Below are positions 4,593 through 44,244 of a stretch of 49,646 nucleotides of DNA, in pieces. The notes under the pieces are model-generated. The model worked only from the letters and a program-made list of their open reading frames with translations. It had not been told where the DNA came from and did not search any database. The stretch is from a virus (lineage: Duplodnaviria > Caudoviricetes). A program made the translations under genes and the position numbers. The stretch covers positions 1-49,646 of the IMG/VR virus record IMGVR_UViG_3300008050_000064. One strand, given 5' to 3'. The number at the start of each line of letters is the position of its first letter. The stretch's first letter is position 1.

Positions 4593-4967
4593 ATGCCAAA
4601 AAAACCAAGCGATAGAAGTGAAAACGGAAAGTTTGCCAAGGGCAACTCATTTGCCATACAAAAGGGTGAGGTGAGGAATCCCAAGGGTAGACCAAAAGGC
4701 GTGTCAATACACCAGAAGTTGCGTGACCTGCTTGAGGGCGAGGACGGTGAAGCTCTGGTGAGTGCAATCGCACAGGCAGGTATAGACCACGCTTGTGGCG
4801 GTAATCCAAAGTTTTGGGAAATGGTCGTAGCGATTATTGATGGCAAGATTCCCGACAAGATTGAACAATCGAATAGAACCACTATCGAGTTTGACGATGA
4901 GGCAAAAGAGCGCATTAGAAAAATAATCGAGGCATCCGATTATGTGAGCGATGACAAAGATAATTAG
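4593..4967 (+). CDS. terS: terminase small subunit (ORF open from 4548)
   Basis: GKFAKGN...KGEVRNPKGRPKG motif typical of TerS/DUF5681-like N-termini; directly upstream of TerL. Confidence 0.7.
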   Translation: MPKKPSDRSENGKFAKGNSFAIQKGEVRNPKGRPKGVSIHQKLRDLLEGEDGEALVSAIAQAGIDHACGGNPKFWEMVVAIIDGKIPDKIEQSNRTTIEFDDEAKERIRKIIEASDYVSDDKDN

Positions 4968-6399
4968 TAGCGAACTGGTCGAGGCGTGTAGGCACTCGCC
5001 AAATGTATTTGCTAACTGTGTTATGGGATTTGCTCAAGGCGAGATACACAGAAAGATGCAAAAGCATTTAACAATGTACGACAATTGCTATATTGAGTAT
5101 CCTAGGGGTCATGGCAAAACAGCGCAAATGACGATGCGGGTAGCATGGGAAATTGGTAACGACCCAACTGTGCGAATCAAATACATACAGCAAGCTGAAA
5201 CAGAAGCCAAGAAAACAACAGGGCTTATCAAGTCAATCATCGAAAGCGAATTGTATAAAGTTGTTTTTCCTGAGATAGAACCCGACATGGATACGTGGAG
5301 GAAAGCCGACTTTAAAGTGAAGACCGAAAAGTGGCAAAGAGATGCAACGGTAGAAGCAAAACCTATATTCGGTCGTGCAGGTGGTCGTGCAGATATTCTC
5401 ATTGCAGACGATATTTGCGACTTGAGAAACGCCATTCAACAATCAGCGTTGCGTGAACAAGTCAAAGAGTTTTGGAATACAAATTGGTTGCCTATGCGTG
5501 ACTTTACAAAAGACCGACCCGCAAGAACATGGAAGGTAGGAACTTGTTATCACGCAGACGACATAACGGCTGATTGGAGAAATATGCACAGAGATACAAC
5601 TGGTTTACTGCGGTTGCCAGTTGTAGACTTTGAATCACCCTGGCACGAAGCAATCACAAGAGATGAACTAATCGGGATTAAAAAAGAGATTGGCACATTT
5701 GCTTTTGCTAGGTCTTACGAGTTAGAACCTGTATCAAGTGACTTAATCATATTCGATGGCGAGTGGATTAAAAGTTCAATGTACACAGAGATACCAGAGT
5801 GGGAAAGTCAAAACGGAATAATGATTGCATCAATGGACTTTGCTTTCACAGAGAAGAAACTAGATGGCGACCCTGATTGGTCTGTGTGTATCATTGCTTG
5901 GAAAGACCGACACAATGGAATATGGCTCAAAGACATAATTAGACAGCGTTCAACATTTCCTGAGTTCAGCAGAAATGTCATCGAGGCATTAAGGCGCACA
6001 GGAGTTTCTCAAGCTGTTGCAGAGGCGAATGGACCACAACGAGGTTTGGTACAGCAAATGCAACAAGATTGTCCACACACGCCAATACGCCCACTAAATC
6101 GTGACAAGGATAAAATCACAAGAGCTTCAGAAAGACAGGGTTTTGTCGAGGCGGGGATGTTGCATTTTCCAATGGCTAATGGATTTGTGCGGGATGACTT
6201 TCGTGTTGTCTATGATGAGATGACAACATTCCCTGTTGGCGGTCACGATGATACGGTCGATGCAATCATTGACTTAATCGAAATAACAGTAAACATGGGC
6301 GAACCATTGAAGACACAAAGAATTGATAACCGTAAAAAGAATGTTGGAAGTTTGTACGGCATCACAAACAAGAAATGGGAAAAACACGAAAGACCGTAA
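4951..6399 (+). CDS. terL: terminase large subunit
   Basis: Walker A PRGHGKT, Walker B ILIADD, nuclease DFA...D.D.S and FPVGGHDDTVDA. Confidence 0.93.
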   Translation: MTKIISSELVEACRHSPNVFANCVMGFAQGEIHRKMQKHLTMYDNCYIEYPRGHGKTAQMTMRVAWEIGNDPTVRIKYIQQAETEAKKTTGLIKSIIESELYKVVFPEIEPDMDTWRKADFKVKTEKWQRDATVEAKPIFGRAGGRADILIADDICDLRNAIQQSALREQVKEFWNTNWLPMRDFTKDRPARTWKVGTCYHADDITADWRNMHRDTTGLLRLPVVDFESPWHEAITRDELIGIKKEIGTFAFARSYELEPVSSDLIIFDGEWIKSSMYTEIPEWESQNGIMIASMDFAFTEKKLDGDPDWSVCIIAWKDRHNGIWLKDIIRQRSTFPEFSRNVIEALRRTGVSQAVAEANGPQRGLVQQMQQDCPHTPIRPLNRDKDKITRASERQGFVEAGMLHFPMANGFVRDDFRVVYDEMTTFPVGGHDDTVDAIIDLIEITVNMGEPLKTQRIDNRKKNVGSLYGITNKKWEKHERP

Positions 6400-6412
6400 A
6401 AACTTTTTTTTC

Positions 6413-6441
6413 TTGCAACGAATCTTTGTTCTGAATATATA
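6413..6441 (+). promoter_or_regulatory. putative sigma70 promoter P1
   Basis: TTGCAA-17 nt-TATATA with upstream A/T tract. Confidence 0.45.
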
Positions 6442-6590
6442 AACAAAGAAAGTCGTAACCAATCTTAAACAAAAACAATCAAAAACCACACGAAAAAGAT
6501 TTTTGAAAAAAGTTTTTGGTGGGTTTGCGTTTCATAAATAAAACTTTTCTATTCGTTTTGTTGAGTTGGCACGAAAACGCAAATAAAATT

Positions 6591-6619
6591 TTGAACGCAA
6601 AAACGAATTATGGTAAAAT
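6591..6619 (+). promoter_or_regulatory. putative sigma70 promoter P2 with extended -10
   Basis: TTGAAC-17 nt-TAAAAT preceded by TGG; AT-rich UP-like region. Confidence 0.65.
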
Positions 6620-6624
6620 ACACA

Positions 6625-6666
6625 TATCGAAAGGAAAAACACTTTTGATAAATTGCTCTTTGACAA
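6625..6666 (+). promoter_or_regulatory. boxB-like hairpin followed by boxA-like antitermination site 1
   Basis: TATCGAAAG/CTTTTGATA stem (6625-6650), then TGCTCTTTGACAA (6654-6666), compared with E. coli rrn boxA TGCTCTTTAACA. Confidence 0.6.
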
Positions 6667-7006
6667 GTGAAGATGTGTTGTTCAAGAAAGGAAACTTTTA
6701 TGAGTACAGATAAACACATAACGATTTATCAATTAGAAAAAATCCTTGCAAAGGATAAAAGATTTGAAGATGCCCCTGAAAATGTTGGGGGGATGGATAA
6801 TGAAACGACTCGATACTTCATACACTCCCACAGCGGTTGGGTTCGTGACGAAGGATGCCACAGTGAATATGTAGAGTTCTACGATGACAATGGCAAATCG
6901 GTTGAAACACTTTCTAAGATTACGGAACTTCTCGATGCCTTTTATTGGTGGGCAGAAGACCCAGAACTGACAGACTAAAACTAAACCCGAACAGCACATC
7001 TTCACT
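6666..7006. repeat. 18-bp inverted repeat enclosing ORF 6700-6978
   Basis: AGTGAAGATGTGTTGTTC (6666-6683) pairs with GAACAGCACATCTTCACT (6989-7006); only deviation is a G.U. Confidence 0.92.
6700..6978 (+). CDS. acidic hypothetical protein
   Basis: ATG at 6700 after AAGAAAGGAA SD. Confidence 0.7.
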   Translation: MSTDKHITIYQLEKILAKDKRFEDAPENVGGMDNETTRYFIHSHSGWVRDEGCHSEYVEFYDDNGKSVETLSKITELLDAFYWWAEDPELTD

Positions 7007-7019
7007 GGCAACGGTCAGT

Positions 7020-7032
7020 CGCTCTTTGACAA
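7020..7032 (+). promoter_or_regulatory. boxA-like site 2
   Basis: CGCTCTTTGACAA; 14-nt GCTCTTTGACAAGT identical to 6655-6668. Confidence 0.6.
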
Positions 7033-7342
7033 GTAAATACCGCACTGCTCAAGAAAGGAATACTTATGAATAAGAAATATGAGTTTTTAGCAGACACCGT
7101 AAGCGATGCGTTTGCGTGGTTGAAAGTGTGGTCGGAGAACGATGTCCCAGAATTACTGGGGTGGAACACTTCACCAAAAACATTCAGGTCTGATGTGGCG
7201 AACTGCGACATCAAAAAGTGGATAGCAACAGAGAAACATTTACGAGTCAGCGACTCTGGGATTTGTCAAGACATAATCTCAGACCTAGACTCTCGATACG
7301 AATAAGATAAATAGAAATTAGACCGAGCAGTGTGGTATTTAC
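7033..7342. repeat. 18-bp inverted repeat enclosing ORF 7066-7305
   Basis: GTAAATACCGCACTGCTC (7033-7050) pairs with GAGCAGTGTGGTATTTAC (7325-7342); one G.U; extends to 25 bp with 2 mismatches. Confidence 0.92.
7066..7305 (+). CDS. hypothetical protein
   Basis: ATG after AAGAAAGGAA SD. Confidence 0.7.
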   Translation: MNKKYEFLADTVSDAFAWLKVWSENDVPELLGWNTSPKTFRSDVANCDIKKWIATEKHLRVSDSGICQDIISDLDSRYE

Positions 7343-7368
7343 ATGCCAAACAACAAAAGGAGAACAGC

Positions 7369-7539
7369 ATGAAGTTATGGACAATCTACAACACGACCAT
7401 CAAGGACTACTTGGTGGACAACAAAGGCAAGGTAGCCACCTACACGATGCGGAGGCAAGCGAAGCAGGAAGCTGATGACTTCAACTCAATGCGTAAGGAC
7501 AAGCCGTATGAAGTACGAGAATACAAAAGGAGAAAATGA
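7369..7539 (+). CDS. small basic hypothetical protein
   Basis: ATG at 7369 after AAGGAG. Confidence 0.6.
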   Translation: MKLWTIYNTTIKDYLVDNKGKVATYTMRRQAKQEADDFNSMRKDKPYEVREYKRRK

Positions 7540-7790
7540 AAATGGAAAAACAAATACCAACAACAGTAAGCGTGAAATTAACCGAGGCACAGATTGATTG
7601 GATTATCAACGAGTGTGAGCATTGGCATCATGGCACTGACATTGAAGAAAATGACACTAGGCATATTGACCTTGCCAAAAAGTTGCAAGGCAGATTAGAA
7701 GCTAGAGGTCTGGAGCAAACACATCCATTTGGAAGAAAGCCAACAGAAAGAGAGATTGCAGATGCCCAGTTTTTAAAACTGTTTGGCTAA
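7536..7790 (+). CDS. hypothetical protein
   Basis: AAGGAG SD, ATGA overlap. Confidence 0.6.
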   Translation: MKMEKQIPTTVSVKLTEAQIDWIINECEHWHHGTDIEENDTRHIDLAKKLQGRLEARGLEQTHPFGRKPTEREIADAQFLKLFG

Positions 7791-7872
7791 TCACAAATAG
7801 CCACTACAAACCAAATCGGTAAATCGGTCTAATTGATTGATGTATCGGTTTTTTTTCGGTTACTATACGGAC

Positions 7873-9435
7873 ATGGCTAAAAGAGGAAAACACGCAATTA
7901 CTCAAACTAGGGATAACAAGGGAAGATTTGCTCAAAGCGATGACACCCTTGACAGAAGCAAAAGTCCAGAACAGGTGTTACAACCACCATTTGCCTCGGT
8001 CGTAGAATTACAACGGTCGTACATGAGCCACTTCACGAAAGTGTTGAGGCGTTCGGATATGGCACTTCGCCAAGACCGCCAACTACAAAGGCAGATGAGG
8101 CGTGACCCAGATGTCATGTCCCCATTGTTCCAAAGGCAGTCGGCAGTTGCGCTATTGGATTGGGAGATTGTCCCAGAAGATTCAACCGATGAGGTGCAAG
8201 TCGAACAGGCAAAAGAGCTTCAGAGAATTATCCAGAATAACCTTACTCAACCCGTTGAGTTTTTCAAGAGCATGTTGGAAGCAGTTTGGTACGGTCCATC
8301 CGCAATTCAGATAACGCCAGAAGTTCGTGGTGAAGATATAGTTCCAGGAAAGTGGATGCCAATACACTCAGACACCTTGGCGTTTACTGAAGAAGGCGAA
8401 CTTGGTTTATATGTTGGTCGAAGGTATGAGGGAGCATGGCAACAAGGTCCGTATGGTCTGCTACATATTCTTGAAGAAGAAGAACGAGAGCAAATCATAT
8501 TCCACACACACAATACCGAAGGTGCAGATTACGAAGTAGCAGAAGAAGCGGGATATGTTTATTCGGGTCGTGGACTTCGTGATGTTGTGTGGTTTCAGTG
8601 GGTTATGAAACAGACTGCCCTGCAATTCTACATGACCTACGTAGAGAGATATGGCATGGGCATACGTGTTGGCACATACCCAGACGGCAACGCATCTGCA
8701 CAATCTGTCATGCAAGATGTAATGGAAAACTTGGTCGGTGATGTTTCGGTTCTTATACCCAAGCAATCAGGTGGGGAAGATTTATATTCGCTCGATATTA
8801 AAGAGGTCAATGGAAACAACGCAAGAATCTTTGCAGATTTAATCGAAGGATACTTGGCGGGTCAGATTAAAGAACTCATTATTGGTCAGACAGCTACGAC
8901 AGAAGCCACAGCAACAGGTCTTGGTTCTTCGGTTGGCGACCAACACGCAGAAACATTTAGGCGCATTATTCAAACGGATGCAATTGGTCTTGCCAATACT
9001 CTTACCGAAGAATTTGTCCGAAGGTATCACAAATACAACTTTGGCGAAACGGACTACCTGCCACGTTTTGAGTTCGCACTAGAAAAGAATGACCCTCGTG
9101 AGTTTATGGAAGGTGTACGTTCGTTTGTCGAACTAGGTGGCTCAGTTTCCCAACGGCAAGCAAGGGAAATCTTGGGTATTACAGAACCAGAAGAAGGCGA
9201 AGAAGTATTATCATCACAGCAAGACCAACAACAAGCTATGCAAGAAGAAATGATGCAACAGCAAGGAATGGGTCAGCCACAACAGCAGGGACAAGGACAG
9301 CCAAGCCAAGATGATATAATGAGCCAGTTGTTTGGCGGTGGTATGCCCAAACCACCTAACGCAGAAAAGGCAGATAAAGCATTCAAGGAATTTGCAAAGA
9401 GTTTGAAGAAACACAATTTAGGTAAAAAACAATGA
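7873..9435 (+). CDS. portal protein, Mu gp29/DUF935-like
   Basis: QMRRDPDV, EAVWYGPS, YVERYGMGIRVGTYP, IKELIIGQTATT...GLGSSVGDQH; follows TerL; Q-rich C-terminal tail. Confidence 0.9.
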   Translation: MAKRGKHAITQTRDNKGRFAQSDDTLDRSKSPEQVLQPPFASVVELQRSYMSHFTKVLRRSDMALRQDRQLQRQMRRDPDVMSPLFQRQSAVALLDWEIVPEDSTDEVQVEQAKELQRIIQNNLTQPVEFFKSMLEAVWYGPSAIQITPEVRGEDIVPGKWMPIHSDTLAFTEEGELGLYVGRRYEGAWQQGPYGLLHILEEEEREQIIFHTHNTEGADYEVAEEAGYVYSGRGLRDVVWFQWVMKQTALQFYMTYVERYGMGIRVGTYPDGNASAQSVMQDVMENLVGDVSVLIPKQSGGEDLYSLDIKEVNGNNARIFADLIEGYLAGQIKELIIGQTATTEATATGLGSSVGDQHAETFRRIIQTDAIGLANTLTEEFVRRYHKYNFGETDYLPRFEFALEKNDPREFMEGVRSFVELGGSVSQRQAREILGITEPEEGEEVLSSQQDQQQAMQEEMMQQQGMGQPQQQGQGQPSQDDIMSQLFGGGMPKPPNAEKADKAFKEFAKSLKKHNLGKKQ

Positions 9436-11243
9436 GTAAATATAAAAGTTCATACGCAAAATTAGCGGTCAATCGAAAGAACAAATACGCAAGTGATTGC
9501 GGTGCAGGTAAAGAAGGCTCAAGTGGATTCCAACCTGGCAACACCTGTGCGGGTGACGGTGGTACGGGTGGTGGTGATGCTAAACAGAAGCCCAAAATGC
9601 CAAAGAAACCAAAAGACCCTTTAGACAAAAAACAATTAGGCATTGCCATTGATACGCTAGAAAATCCCGCCAAAGCGTTAATGGGTGGACCATCTGTATC
9701 CGAATCAAGAGAAATGTTGGCAGAAAAGTTTGGATATAATGACGAGCAACTAGATTGGCTTCAATACGGTCAGCATGGCGAAGATGCCCCCGACACAGGT
9801 GGTGGCGAAGGTTCAATACCCGAAGGTGCAAAACTACACAAAGGCGATTACTATTGGGAAGATTACAACGATGCTAAAAATTGGGCATCAGAAAACGGTT
9901 GGGAATTAGAAACAGACGGACACGACAATATAAAATCTTTTGGTCAAGGTTGGTCAGTACAAGCAGGTCCAAGTGGAAATTATGCAGGTCAAGACCCAGA
10001 AACAGGAGAAGAAGTCAATCCAAGAGAATGGAAAGGCATTGATGGAATGGACGATGCCGACACAGGTGCGGGCGAAGGTTTCGATGAAACGCCTGGAGCA
10101 GATGCACCAAGCAAAGAAGATATTGAAGCGATGGAAGGTCTTGACATCATGCAACCCGACACAGGTGCGGGCGAAGGTTTGGCAGATGAGGATGTATTGT
10201 TTACTGGTTCTGGAAAAATTGAACTTCCACTTTCCGAAGAAGCAAAAAGAGATGGTGCAACAATTTACAATACCGATATGAGTCATATTTCAGATGAAAT
10301 TTTAAATGAAGAACTAAATCAAATAGGTGACGGTTGGGATGTTGAAAATATGGATAGGCAAGAGAGGGAGGGTCTAATGTTGGAATCGCTCGTCATGGAT
10401 GCCGAAGATAGAGCATTTGAAACAGGTTCGGGCGAAGGTGGTGGCGAAGGTGGAGTCCCAGACTCCCCAACGAGCGAAGGTGGCAAGCCATACGGAACAG
10501 ATTCAGATATGCGGGTTTGGATTGGCGACTTGGGTGCACACAACGCAGGAGAACTTAAAGGCGAATGGGTAAACGCATCTGATGTTCAAGAAGCATGGGA
10601 ACACTTGCGTGAGAATGAAGGGTACGGTGAAGAATACTATATTGGTGATGTTGAGGGTGTTCCAAGAGATTTGGCAGGACAATACGGTTATGGTGATTTA
10701 GATGAAATAGCAAACTACGCAAACACTATGGAATCACATGACAACCCTGAAGCATTCCAGGCGTATGTTGATGCAACAGGTTTAAATATGGAAGATGCTG
10801 TCGAACAATTTGAAGATAGATACGCAGGTGAAGCAGGTGATATGGGTAGGCGAGGAAGTTACGATTTGCCTATGGGATTCGTTTATGATTTGATAGATGA
10901 CACAGGCGGTGTAGAAGAAATCATGAAAAACAATCCTGGTTCTTATGTAGACCGAGAAAAACTTGTGCGTGATTTAAGTTACGACAACAGATACGATATA
11001 CAGGAAGATGATGAGGGTTCAAAAGTTGTCGATGAAGATGGAGAGGTCGTATATCATGGAAGCGACTTTGATGATGCAGAAGGGTGGATTAAACAATCTG
11101 ACGAAGAATTAGCAGACGAACTTATTGAAGGCGGTGGTTTGTCAAATCCAGATTCTTACTTCGACTACGAACAGTACGCATTTGACTTGGTTATAGGTGG
11201 CGACATTATGGTTTCAGATGGCTATGTATTCTGGAATCAGTGA
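9432..11243 (+). CDS. ardA: multi-module acidic protein with N-terminal C-x15-C tag and C-terminal ArdA-like anti-restriction domain
   Basis: From 10509: RVWIGDLGAHNAGELKGEWV...EEYYIGDVEG...FEDRYAGE...YFDYEQYAFDL...GYVF match ArdA signatures; very D/E rich. Confidence 0.8.
   Translation: MSKYKSSYAKLAVNRKNKYASDCGAGKEGSSGFQPGNTCAGDGGTGGGDAKQKPKMPKKPKDPLDKKQLGIAIDTLENPAKALMGGPSVSESREMLAEKFGYNDEQLDWLQYGQHGEDAPDTGGGEGSIPEGAKLHKGDYYWEDYNDAKNWASENGWELETDGHDNIKSFGQGWSVQAGPSGNYAGQDPETGEEVNPREWKGIDGMDDADTGAGEGFDETPGADAPSKEDIEAMEGLDIMQPDTGAGEGLADEDVLFTGSGKIELPLSEEAKRDGATIYNTDMSHISDEILNEELNQIGDGWDVENMDRQEREGLMLESLVMDAEDRAFETGSGEGGGEGGVPDSPTSEGGKPYGTDSDMRVWIGDLGAHNAGELKGEWVNASDVQEAWEHLRENEGYGEEYYIGDVEGVPRDLAGQYGYGDLDEIANYANTMESHDNPEAFQAYVDATGLNMEDAVEQFEDRYAGEAGDMGRRGSYDLPMGFVYDLIDDTGGVEEIMKNNPGSYVDREKLVRDLSYDNRYDIQEDDEGSKVVDEDGEVVYHGSDFDDAEGWIKQSDEELADELIEGGGLSNPDSYFDYEQYAFDLVIGGDIMVSDGYVFWNQ
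9492..9560 (+). repeat. coding repeat copy 1, SDCGAGKEGSSGFQPGNTCAGDG
   Basis: One of five in-frame copies. Confidence 0.95.
10057..10180 (+). repeat. 25-nt direct repeat CCGACACAGGTGCGGGCGAAGGTTT (DTGAGEG linker)
   Basis: Identical at 10057-10081 and 10156-10180; degenerate copies near 9790 and 10419. Confidence 0.9.
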
Positions 11244-34625: not shown

Positions 34626-35030
34626 TTAGAATGGTATGTCATCATCTGGAACTTTTGTCGCTACAGATGAAACTGGAATCTCTTTTTCCTGTGAATCGCC
34701 TGAAACATTCTTGATGTTCCTAACTTCGACAACGGTAAACTTACCTCTTTTCCCTTCGACTTCTTTGTTTGAGAAATCTGCTTGAATGCGAAGACCTATT
34801 AAATCAAATACATCTTGATTAAAAAATGTATCCCAATCTGCGGATGTGTAACCAAGCATTGAAAACCATCTTAGCGCAACGGAGGCAGGGGCGGTTTTCC
34901 CAATGTAGTCGTGCGTGTACCGTTCTTTGTTCGGAAGGTTTACGTCTTCACGACACAAGCAAACCTTAATCGCAGGACCACCTGCGTGTTTAATTAGTTC
35001 TACTTTTGTAACTGTTGCAAATTCCATCAT
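34626..35030 (-). CDS. putative single-stranded DNA-binding protein
   Basis: C-terminal PDDDIPF acidic tail; follows the Sak gene. Confidence 0.65.
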   Translation of the reverse strand: MMEFATVTKVELIKHAGGPAIKVCLCREDVNLPNKERYTHDYIGKTAPASVALRWFSMLGYTSADWDTFFNQDVFDLIGLRIQADFSNKEVEGKRGKFTVVEVRNIKNVSGDSQEKEIPVSSVATKVPDDDIPF

Positions 35031-35611
35031 TTTTTCTCCTGTGTTGGGATTCTTTCGTGTGTTGCTACTAATTGCTCATCTGAAAACTCGTCTACATCGG
35101 TTAAATCCCAATGCTCAAATACAGCACCCGCCCATTTAGTATCTTTGTCCATGTGTGACCTAATAGCTTTGACGAGTTCTTTTCGACAATCTTCTGTAAG
35201 TTTAAGTTCATCCTCAAACATTACGGTGTCTTCACCTGCGTAAACATTTATTCCTAAGCCATGAAAAGCTAACGCCTTTACCAAGCATCTTTTTAATGAG
35301 TTGTTGATGTCGGTTGAGGATGGGTGAAGAATCGGGTTGTTGTAATTATCCATAACTGGCAAATCTTCTGTAAGGGTCTGTTCGTCAATCGTCACAGACA
35401 CAGAAACAAATGCGTTACCTTCTTCGTCTTTAAATACTGGATACTCTTGTTCGTTCTTCTTGTACTCAAAGCTTGCTGTTGGGTAATTTTCTTTGCAGAT
35501 GCTCCAAGCCCAAGCCCACGATAGATAGTTGAATCTACCCTTTTTCTCGACATGCTCTGAGCAGTCTATTCGGGAAAGTGTTTCCCATGCTGATAATTTT
35601 TCTTTAGACAT
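35027..35611 (-). CDS. sak: Sak/Rad52-like single-strand annealing protein (DUF1071-like)
   Basis: VEKKGRFNYLSWAWAW...LPVMD..N...INNSLKRCLVKALA.HGLG..VYAGED; GGAGGT SD. Confidence 0.88.
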   Translation of the reverse strand: MSKEKLSAWETLSRIDCSEHVEKKGRFNYLSWAWAWSICKENYPTASFEYKKNEQEYPVFKDEEGNAFVSVSVTIDEQTLTEDLPVMDNYNNPILHPSSTDINNSLKRCLVKALAFHGLGINVYAGEDTVMFEDELKLTEDCRKELVKAIRSHMDKDTKWAGAVFEHWDLTDVDEFSDEQLVATHERIPTQEKK

Positions 35612-36068
35612 TTGCGACCTCCTCGCTTTTAAGTTCTTGTGGCAGTTCTGGTAGTTCCATCCAGGCAACAACTTTTTTTACTTTGTTGCCGTCCTTAAAC
35701 TGAACTACACCCTCGACTGTATTCTGAGATATAAATTCATCTATCCATTCAGATGTAAACAAAACCTTCTTGCCAATTCTGCAATGCCGAATCTGACCTG
35801 AATTTTTCAGTTCCCAAAGCTTTCGTGCTGAAATGTTTAGCCAACTTGCAGTTTCTTTTGAATCTAATAACTTGCCGTCTTGTTGTTTTCTATCACCACT
35901 AGAGGTACTGTGTTTCCCATTCCATACCATCAATATCTGGTGGTGATACAATCCTTCGCCCGCCTCAACCAAGCATAAATAACTGTGACATGGAACGCCA
36001 TCGGGACATTCTTTTGTCTTTGGTAATTCGGGCAACCGTTCTTTTACTGATATCCATTCTTGTGACAT
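35604..36068 (-). CDS. DUF551-like protein with an inserted excisionase-type HTH
   Basis: WISVKERLPE ... VVAWMELPELP bracket LLDSKETASWLNISARKLWEL...IGKKVLF. Confidence 0.7.
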   Translation of the reverse strand: MSQEWISVKERLPELPKTKECPDGVPCHSYLCLVEAGEGLYHHQILMVWNGKHSTSSGDRKQQDGKLLDSKETASWLNISARKLWELKNSGQIRHCRIGKKVLFTSEWIDEFISQNTVEGVVQFKDGNKVKKVVAWMELPELPQELKSEEVANV

Positions 36069-43108: not shown

Positions 43109-43450
43109 ATGCTATTAACAAATAAACAAATGAACGCTATGATTGAAAAAGTGGAAACGCTAGAAACCACAATTAGACCAGATGAAATAACAGATATTAG
43201 ATATGCAGTTAAAACAATCAAATTACTAATTGAACTAAACAAAAATTCGGTTGATGGAATTTTGCAACACCACAAAGCACTTGACACATTGCTAACAATA
43301 CGAAGTATTGAAAAGGCAATAGACACTGCTGAGATATGCACAAAGTGTGATGGAACTGGTGGTGTTGCCAGTAATAAAGTTTTTGGTTCAATGCTCGGTG
43401 CAATTGACGAATGCCCTGAATGTAATGGAACTGGCGAGAAAGTAGGATGA
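43109..43450 (+). CDS. protein with DnaJ-type zinc finger
   Basis: CTKCDGTG...CPECNGTG. Confidence 0.7.
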   Translation: MLLTNKQMNAMIEKVETLETTIRPDEITDIRYAVKTIKLLIELNKNSVDGILQHHKALDTLLTIRSIEKAIDTAEICTKCDGTGGVASNKVFGSMLGAIDECPECNGTGEKVG

Positions 43451-44244
43451 AAATGGAAAACACAAATTTGAAGTTTGACTATTTTTCTCGCGTTGGCATT
43501 TCTGCAACATTATTAAAATCAATCATAAAACAATCGCCAGTACACGCAGCAACCCGAATGCGAACCTTCAAGCCATCGCCAACGATGAACCTTGGCACGG
43601 CTGCACATTGCGCAATCCTTGAACCCCATCGCTACAATGAGTTGATTGCCATTTGCCCAGATTGCGACAGGCGAACAAAAACGGGCAAAGCAGAATACGC
43701 TTCGTTTGTTGAAAGTGCTGGCAAAAAGACGGTTATCAAATACGACCAGCATGAAGCAGTAATAGCAATGGCAAATGCGGTTGATGAACATGAACACGCT
43801 ACTGAATTGATGCAGGATACAAAGCGCGAAGTTGAAATTGATTTTGCATTTGATGGCGAAACGTGCAAGGCAAAAATTGATGCAGTCAAGGGTGATAATA
43901 CAATTATTGATATTAAAACAACCATTGATGCAAGCCCAGATGCCTTTGCAAGACAATCTGCAAGTTTGTTTTATCAAATGCAAATGGCGTGGTACGCGAA
44001 GGCAATTGGTAGCAGTTGGAAAACGTGCAACTGTTATGTAATTGCGGTTGAAAATACAGAGCCTTATGGCGTTGCTGTTTATCGCTATGATGTTGATGTA
44101 CTCGATAACGGCTGGAAGTTATGCTGTAGGGCATTACGACAATGGCGCGATTACAACGCAACAATTTCAAAAAATGAAACGCCAAAAGCGTATGGCGATT
44201 GTGTTTACGATATTGAATTGCCCGCGTGGGCAGAAAGGGTTTGA
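43447..44244 (+). CDS. RecE/exonuclease VIII-like nuclease, paralog of 409-1200
   Basis: ISATLLK, NLGTAAH, PDCD.RTK.GK, CKAKID, DIKTT.DASP, LPAWA. Confidence 0.85.
   Translation: MKMENTNLKFDYFSRVGISATLLKSIIKQSPVHAATRMRTFKPSPTMNLGTAAHCAILEPHRYNELIAICPDCDRRTKTGKAEYASFVESAGKKTVIKYDQHEAVIAMANAVDEHEHATELMQDTKREVEIDFAFDGETCKAKIDAVKGDNTIIDIKTTIDASPDAFARQSASLFYQMQMAWYAKAIGSSWKTCNCYVIAVENTEPYGVAVYRYDVDVLDNGWKLCCRALRQWRDYNATISKNETPKAYGDCVYDIELPAWAERV

Follow-up and report, generated by a model that had tools for sequence, protein, structure and literature searches.

Phage T7 makes a polycistronic early RNA that is cut into single messages at RNase III sites, which are local intergenic hairpins without boxA. 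In phage lambda, repression of N is relieved by RNase III, and the site is a local hairpin 5' of the gene, not a gene-spanning stem. Integron attC arrays hold promoterless, SD-bearing, exchangeable ORFs behind a single promoter, and full-length type I toxin mRNAs (hok, aapA) are kept silent by their 3' end as long as trimming has not occurred. An eLife paper reportedly places boxA at CRISPR arrays. According to excerpts of PMC10250234, the leaders and spacers of rRNA operons (rrn) carry boxB-boxA-boxC, boxA recruits NusB/E and suffices for rrnTAC, and the leader-trailer helices, which must be longer than 17 bp, are cut by RNase III. Excerpts of PMC5725501 report that a boxA in the 5'-UTR of an mRNA represses translation in E. 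coli, and they include the Nus-mediated repression of lambda N. The PeSL cassettes of T4-type phages, as described in a part of PMC2839356, are conserved intergenic modules of promoter and terminator hairpins in hyperplastic regions, where small unknown genes are shuffled by recombination. The combination of boxA with a leader-trailer helix has so far been taken as a hallmark of stable-RNA genes, and our literature search, with most subscription journals outside its coverage, turned up no account of phage ORFs enclosed by boxA-headed stems.

The window, that is, the whole stretch of DNA analyzed here, is a complete-looking record, 49,646 nucleotides long, of an uncultured marine phage. On its plus strand, terL (4951-6399; terminase large subunit, PHROG 38, E 7.5e-55) and portal (7873-9435; PHROG 113, E 3.5e-51) flank an optional island (6406-7781), whose borders are marked by a clean 6405-7782 joint in a contig of run X7 and by the empty site of L009, a terL relative in which terL directly adjoins portal. 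Among six terL relatives, boxA is found in two (L007 and L008, mutually near-identical), the island promoter without boxA in three (L006, L010, L011), and an empty island in one. In relatives, the island lies either after terL (L008, L150, L164, L175, L187) or before portal (L163), or else just 5' of homologues of the window's first genes (L003, L012, L015, L017, L034, L151).

The first-pass annotation of this DNA described two stem-enclosed ORFs in the island. Both are present (ORF1, 92 aa, 6700-6978; ORF2, 79 aa, 7066-7305), but two further plus-strand ORFs outside the stems had been overlooked, ORF3 (56 aa, 7369-7539) and ORF4 (84 aa, 7536-7790). Because three of the six terL relatives have the island promoter without boxA and ORF3 and ORF4 do without stems, the boxA/stem device is dispensable. 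ORF1 matched nothing in PHROG, Pfam or Atlas and has two homologues (48% identity to the cassette ORF of L118), and PHROG, Pfam, Atlas and a homologue search assigned no family to ORF2. The stems of the window enclose ORFs, not rRNA or other stable RNA: Rfam and ARAGORN gave no rRNA, other Rfam or tRNA match in the window. No terminator-like site was found in 6000-8000. The label "D-mannonate dehydratase" on protein P0002 was rejected, as that protein is merely 97 aa long. Elsewhere in the window, a 66-nt repeat (at 9494, 11447, 13064, 14266 and 14989; peptide CGAGK...GFQPGNTCAG) sits in four successive ORFs 3' of portal, with two copies in the last; these ORFs carry ArdA, ADP-ribosyltransferase-like and MuF domains and are polyvalent-type head-region proteins. 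Two DUF3799 (PD-(D/E)XK exonuclease-like) paralogues, at 409-1200 and 43447-44244, are also found within this 50-kb genome.

The head of the island had been proposed to carry two promoters in tandem, and one of them holds. A sigma70-type promoter (TTGAAC-17-TAAAAT with a TG extension) is predicted by the promoter scan at 6591-6619, whereas the site at 6413-6441 was not called and has a -10 without the final T; the tandem P1/P2 feature of rrn operons is thus absent. Since the scan gave 3 sites in the region against 4.0 expected, which is chance level, support for the promoter at 6591-6619 comes from conservation: TGGTAWAAT stands 23-35 nt 5' of boxA in all six islands that were retrieved with the promoter left out of the query (L003, L008, L012, L015, L017, L034). 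The A/T-tract region upstream (6400-6590), which encloses the weak first promoter, is also conserved. A blastn search with 6400-6625 matched 11 of 25 loci at 74-97% identity, six of them across nearly the whole length, and one might guess that the region is a UP-like element.

The 5'-terminal hairpin at 6625-6650 folds as claimed and, by prediction, takes the position of boxB in rrn leaders. Hairpins of 6-11 bp and varying sequence are present in 18 of 18 promoter-boxA leaders, one of which (L173) we treated as the window itself. The boxA GCTCTTTGACAA, identical to that of rRNA leaders, occurs in exactly two copies (6655-6666 and 7021-7032), in agreement with the repeat described before, and each cassette has the SD AAGAAAGGAA (6684-6693 and 7051-7060), complementary to the 16S end CCTTTCT. 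In L003, L015 and L117, a conserved additional hairpin (GTTTG(G/A)CTAGGGTAT...CTAG(C/T)CAGAC), which resembles rrn spacer boxB, lies between some trailers and the next boxA.

Each boxA heads a stem that encloses an ORF. The 5' arm of cassette 1 (6666-6683) pairs with 6989-7006, and the trailer tail that follows (to 7013) pairs imperfectly with boxA 1; the 5' arm of cassette 2 (7033-7050) pairs with 7325-7342, and its tail (to 7350) pairs with boxA 2. Both stems have the 18 bp and the single G·U reported in the first-pass annotation, and folding gave pair probabilities of 0.83-1.0. They are the sole 18-bp helices in the 49.6 kb with at most one G·U and arms 80-1000 nt apart on either strand, and 0 of 60 shuffles contained a comparable helix. 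A looser search (unlimited G·U, at least 15 bp) found three further plus-strand helices in the window, within the shuffle range of 0-7, so the claim for the stems rests on their near-perfect pairing. The folding z was -9.55 for the plus strand versus -4.13 for the minus strand (20 shuffles per strand). SD1 is predicted to be partly paired inside a local hairpin.

The unit of promoter, hairpin, boxA, arm, SD, ORF and complementary arm recurs in related phage contigs. Pattern scans and scripts gave 32 unique cassettes, with differing ORFs, at 29 hand-picked loci in arrays of 1-4, the largest being that of L163 with four units. We excluded duplicate rows (three in L176 and four more), units with too little downstream DNA (L117 unit 3, L139, L189, L197, L198, L219 unit 2, L225), a degenerate boxA (L015/L126) and two L063 sites without a partner. 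Alignment of the homologous islands shows the covariation expected if the arms pair. Aligned without gaps, 25 distinct arm pairs over 15 columns make 375 cells, of which 359 are Watson-Crick (WC), 11 G·U, 1 A·C and 4 other, counts that overstate independence because the set was chosen for pairing and its members are related. At least two WC pair types are present in 13 of 15 columns, and 5' arms pair at 14.8 of 15 positions with their own 3' arm versus 9.2 with a foreign one. That selection, kinship and a score that favors G·U all inflate the 11:1 preference for G·U over A·C (nominal p 0.006), and as evidence for RNA this preference is tempered by the tolerance of single-stranded DNA for G·T. 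Homologous ORFs are found with different arms, each self-complementary (for example, ORF1 of the window and L118; L003 unit 3 and L111; L151 unit 2 and L163 unit 2). We make no claim that arms within an array are orthogonal, as their excess difference over random gave just P 0.04-0.21 in nine arrays.

The spacing within cassettes varies little. The SD falls directly inside the stem, whose top is 15-18 nt from the ATG in 26 of 31 cassettes; in 27 of 31, 5-23 nt separate the stop codon from the 3' arm that follows, and the perfect stem core is 15-22 bp in 28 of 31. The trailer tail pairs with boxA over a mean of 8.3 nt (5.8 for shuffled tails, maximum 6.7), leaving the A of TTTG-A-CAA unpaired in 28 of 32 cassettes, and the 3' arm ends at the SD, which stays uncovered. 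All cassette ORFs examined are oriented with the promoter. One stem, in L008, spans 750 nt and surrounds three ORFs. Another (L162 unit 3, L162:1895-2110) surrounds a structured 149-nt segment that has no SD-led ORF and no Rfam match and is a candidate phage small RNA. A boxA-headed long-range duplex is also found in eight hand-picked loci (L045, L048, L066, L068, L073, L076, L144, L147) in which none of the 19 window proteins tested had a detected homologue, a count made without a shuffle comparison. In Pyrinomonadaceae (L253:1741-2030 and L256), boxA and a ~30-bp stem surround ~230 nt, without an Rfam match for the L253 segment. In two viral contigs, boxA+GTGAA lies immediately 5' of a tmRNA (L029:2501-2847, by Rfam) and of a tRNA-like sequence (L030, by eye).

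The head of the phage cassettes is also the head of bacterial rRNA genes. Comparison of boxA with the rrn leaders of candidate hosts, a check that the first-pass annotation had called for, gave a 17-nt identity, GCTCTTTGACAAGTGAA, with 16S/23S leaders of Phycisphaerae and Alphaproteobacteria. By estimate, this sequence is present in ~970 stretches of GTDB genomes, and the records listed are mostly from Phycisphaerae and Alphaproteobacteria. It heads 16S and 23S genes, and Rfam found rRNA in 7 of 20 Planctomycetota loci. In Phycisphaerae, boxA forms the base of the leader-trailer helix in two of three testable 16S genes, one 23S gene and one tmRNA gene. The 16S trailer of the Phycisphaerales G001 and G002, TTCA[C/T]TTGCAAAGAGC, extends its pairing through boxA, where the same A bulges out, and a boxA-based helix likewise encloses the 23S of G001 and the tmRNA of G003. 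The 16S gene of G005 has no clear helix that includes boxA, and in six Alphaproteobacteria 16S genes the continuous helix begins only past boxA. L265 and L275, with too little trailer, and L274, with too little leader, were left out of the comparison. The match extends to the other end of the cassette, where the Phycisphaerales 16S trailer TTCA(C/T)TTGCAAAG nearly matches the commonest phage trailer, TTCACTGGCAAAG. In G003 (L360-L364, L366, L367), seven of nine boxA sites lie away from rRNA inside a dispersed ~110-nt repeat that ends in boxA+GTG(A/C)ATAC, and in G002 a group I intron (L379:3081-3391) lies within the 23S gene.

Full-length portal homologues are present in 3 of 401 Phycisphaerae genomes (E 1e-43 to 1e-51, 30-32% identity); the best portal match among 401 Alphaproteobacteria is partial (1.7e-23). 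Because of the leader and trailer match and the portal homologues, the host is likely a member of the Phycisphaerae (Planctomycetota). In L003, L012, L015 and L034, the ORF 5' of the island ends in what we take, by eye, to be a PSP-type PEP-CTERM-like sorting tail, a hint that also points to a Planctomycetota host. RNase III and NusB were each found in five of five candidate-host genomes tested.

Cassettes are exchanged between phages as wholes. Near-identical phages swap them at the boxA and trailer junctions. A contig of run X4 keeps the terL end of the window, the leader and ORF3, and has both enclosed ORFs replaced by other sequence, with breakpoints at 6692/6994 and 7034/7341; L164, whose partial terL matches at 100% identity across 162 aa, is a genome of this type. 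Several runs also have loose ends that begin exactly after boxA-GT (7034) or stop at the trailer (7341). The simplest account is a PeSL-like exchange between short stretches of homology. These would be supplied by the conserved ends of the cassettes, boxA-GT and TTCAC-TGGCAAAG, so that the junctions double as recombination sites, and the agent is probably the Sak single-strand annealing protein encoded on the minus strand at 35027-35671 (PF06378, E 7e-40).

The cassette ends are complementary and their head exactly copies the host rRNA leader, and the transcript is therefore likely to mimic pre-rRNA. With the same start signal and the same end pairing as the rRNA of its likely host, the phage probably borrows the machinery with which the host transcribes and cuts its rRNA. 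We thus favor, with somewhat better than even confidence, a reading in which pre-rRNA mimicry leads to loading of host Nus factors, annealing of 5' and 3' ends and likely release of single-gene mRNAs by RNase III. The strong promoter would fire, probably early, and NusB/NusE would bind boxA in a complex that keeps hold of the 5' arm as the ORF is looped out. The 3' arm would then anneal and its tail pair into boxA, releasing Nus, which the next boxA, 14 nt downstream, could reload. RNase III would cut the helix of ~18+8 bp and free mRNAs whose paired ends resist decay and whose SD lies directly inside the stem. Since boxA can be a block to translation when it lies in the leader of an mRNA (excerpts of PMC5725501), the ORF may not be translated before the stem has closed. 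The rRNA-precursor layout proposed in the first-pass annotation is supported by the 17-nt leader identity, the near-matching trailer, the covariation and the 11:1 excess of G·U over A·C. Its tandem promoters and circularizable mRNAs have no support, and no RNA ligase family was found among 61 ORFs searched with Pfam. The exchange of cassettes and the known repression of mRNA translation by boxA were not part of that annotation.

Several other explanations share parts of this evidence. The RNA stems could act as uncut clamps that protect or insulate messages, with boxA serving only in antitermination or end annealing. The perfect core of merely 15-22 bp in 28 of 31 cassettes and the imperfect boxA base would suit such a clamp, and a search with the E. 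coli RNase III consensus, itself weak (PMC4357697, in part), found no cut site (5 of 8 positions at the best offset and ~4 at several others). The rRNA helix, moreover, matters independently of RNase III in the excerpts of PMC10250234. We nevertheless judge an uncut clamp unlikely, as the total helix (~25 bp) and trailer sequence copy the host 16S stalk, and arrays of up to four units (L163) would make most sense if cut apart. Control rather than stabilization would be the purpose if boxA-bound Nus blocked translation of possibly toxic small proteins, as in suhB and lambda N, and the gene came on only after the trailer displaced Nus or the stem was cut. Here boxA lies ~18 nt 5' of the SD, the trailer pairs into boxA, and excerpts of PMC5725501 describe how suhB and a ParE-like toxin are repressed through boxA and propose an RNA loop. 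That the promoter and SD are strong and conserved, and that a non-coding RNA occupies the same frame in L162, makes such a switch improbable as the main purpose; it is partly compatible with the mimicry that we favor. Pairing of 5' and 3' ends around small ORFs also recalls the fold-back inhibition of type I toxin mRNAs, where the untrimmed 3' end keeps the message silent. This we consider highly improbable, since the 3' arm halts at the SD without covering it, the encoded proteins look soluble and of diverse families, and boxA would go unexplained.

The remaining alternative places the device in DNA, with the arms as recombination or excision substrates, either attC-like ssDNA hairpins in a circle or inversion sites, and the boxA likeness incidental. 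It would account for the exchange of cassettes as units; the two arms of an excised, circular cassette would make a hairpin, and three joints skip ~300. On the other side, inversion or precise excision at the arms, named at the outset as the outcome that would refute an RNA function, was seen in none of eight DNA runs, nor was any strand-change joint, all eight being contig sets, which lose rare forms. In 61 of ~75 ORFs, Pfam detected neither an integrase nor another recombinase nor a HUH family, the examined cassette ORFs all run in the promoter's direction, and the hairpin at an array junction is weak (-7 kcal/mol versus -30 to -34 for the cassettes' own arm pairs). Nor would a DNA device explain why 17 nt are identical to rRNA leaders and why the trailer is host-like. 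We regard it as very unlikely.

If pre-rRNA mimicry is correct, it would be a new way in which phages make use of Nus factors and RNase III, one that needs no N protein. The cassettes would be natural, translatable substrates with which to ask if 5'/3' annealing is chaperoned, and translation blocked, by the Nus complex, and the leader and trailer match may predict hosts of uncultured phages. More tentatively, we speculate that the cassettes are a portable expression frame, in which a small gene or RNA is filed between a host-matched boxA leader and trailer and the rRNA machine makes, gates and releases a stable, end-paired RNA. The stripping of Nus by the trailer might then be a completion checkpoint, and the junctions integrase-free exchange sites. 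Such a frame suggests a compact design for stabilized single-gene mRNAs.

Among known systems, the rrn precursor of PMC10250234, as excerpted, is the closest, with the 16S, 23S and tmRNA precursors of Phycisphaerales as the nearest instance. The island shares with it a promoter, a hairpin, an identical boxA+GTGAA, an end-joining helix of more than 17 bp with covariation, repetition unit by unit, and pairing of boxA with the trailer that leaves one A unpaired. In contrast to rrn precursors, the phage cassettes enclose an SD and protein ORFs (Rfam found no rRNA in the window), their arms differ from cassette to cassette, and they are exchanged. As in the lambda nutL/N leader (PMC5725501, in part), a phage boxA lies on an mRNA 5' of a gene and is predicted here to recruit host Nus; unlike lambda nut, the island repeats boxA for each gene, and no N protein family was detected among 61 ORFs by Pfam, a search that short N proteins can escape. 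Gene exchange at a conserved junction is common to the island and to PeSLs, but the island has one promoter and no terminator call where PeSLs, in the part of PMC2839356 cited, have promoter and terminator hairpins, and its junctions consist of boxA and the halves of gene-spanning stems. With T7 early RNA, the island model has in common that host RNase III splits a polycistronic phage RNA (cutting being predicted here), whereas the T7 sites are local and lack boxA. The array of promoterless, SD-bearing, swappable ORFs behind one promoter resembles an integron, but no integrase was detected, and the complementarity spans a gene and not a single site. Unlike an invertible DNA segment, no ORF was found in both orientations in eight contig sets. 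The features tested set the device apart from nut sites, PeSLs and integrons; it appears to work like an rrn precursor without being one.
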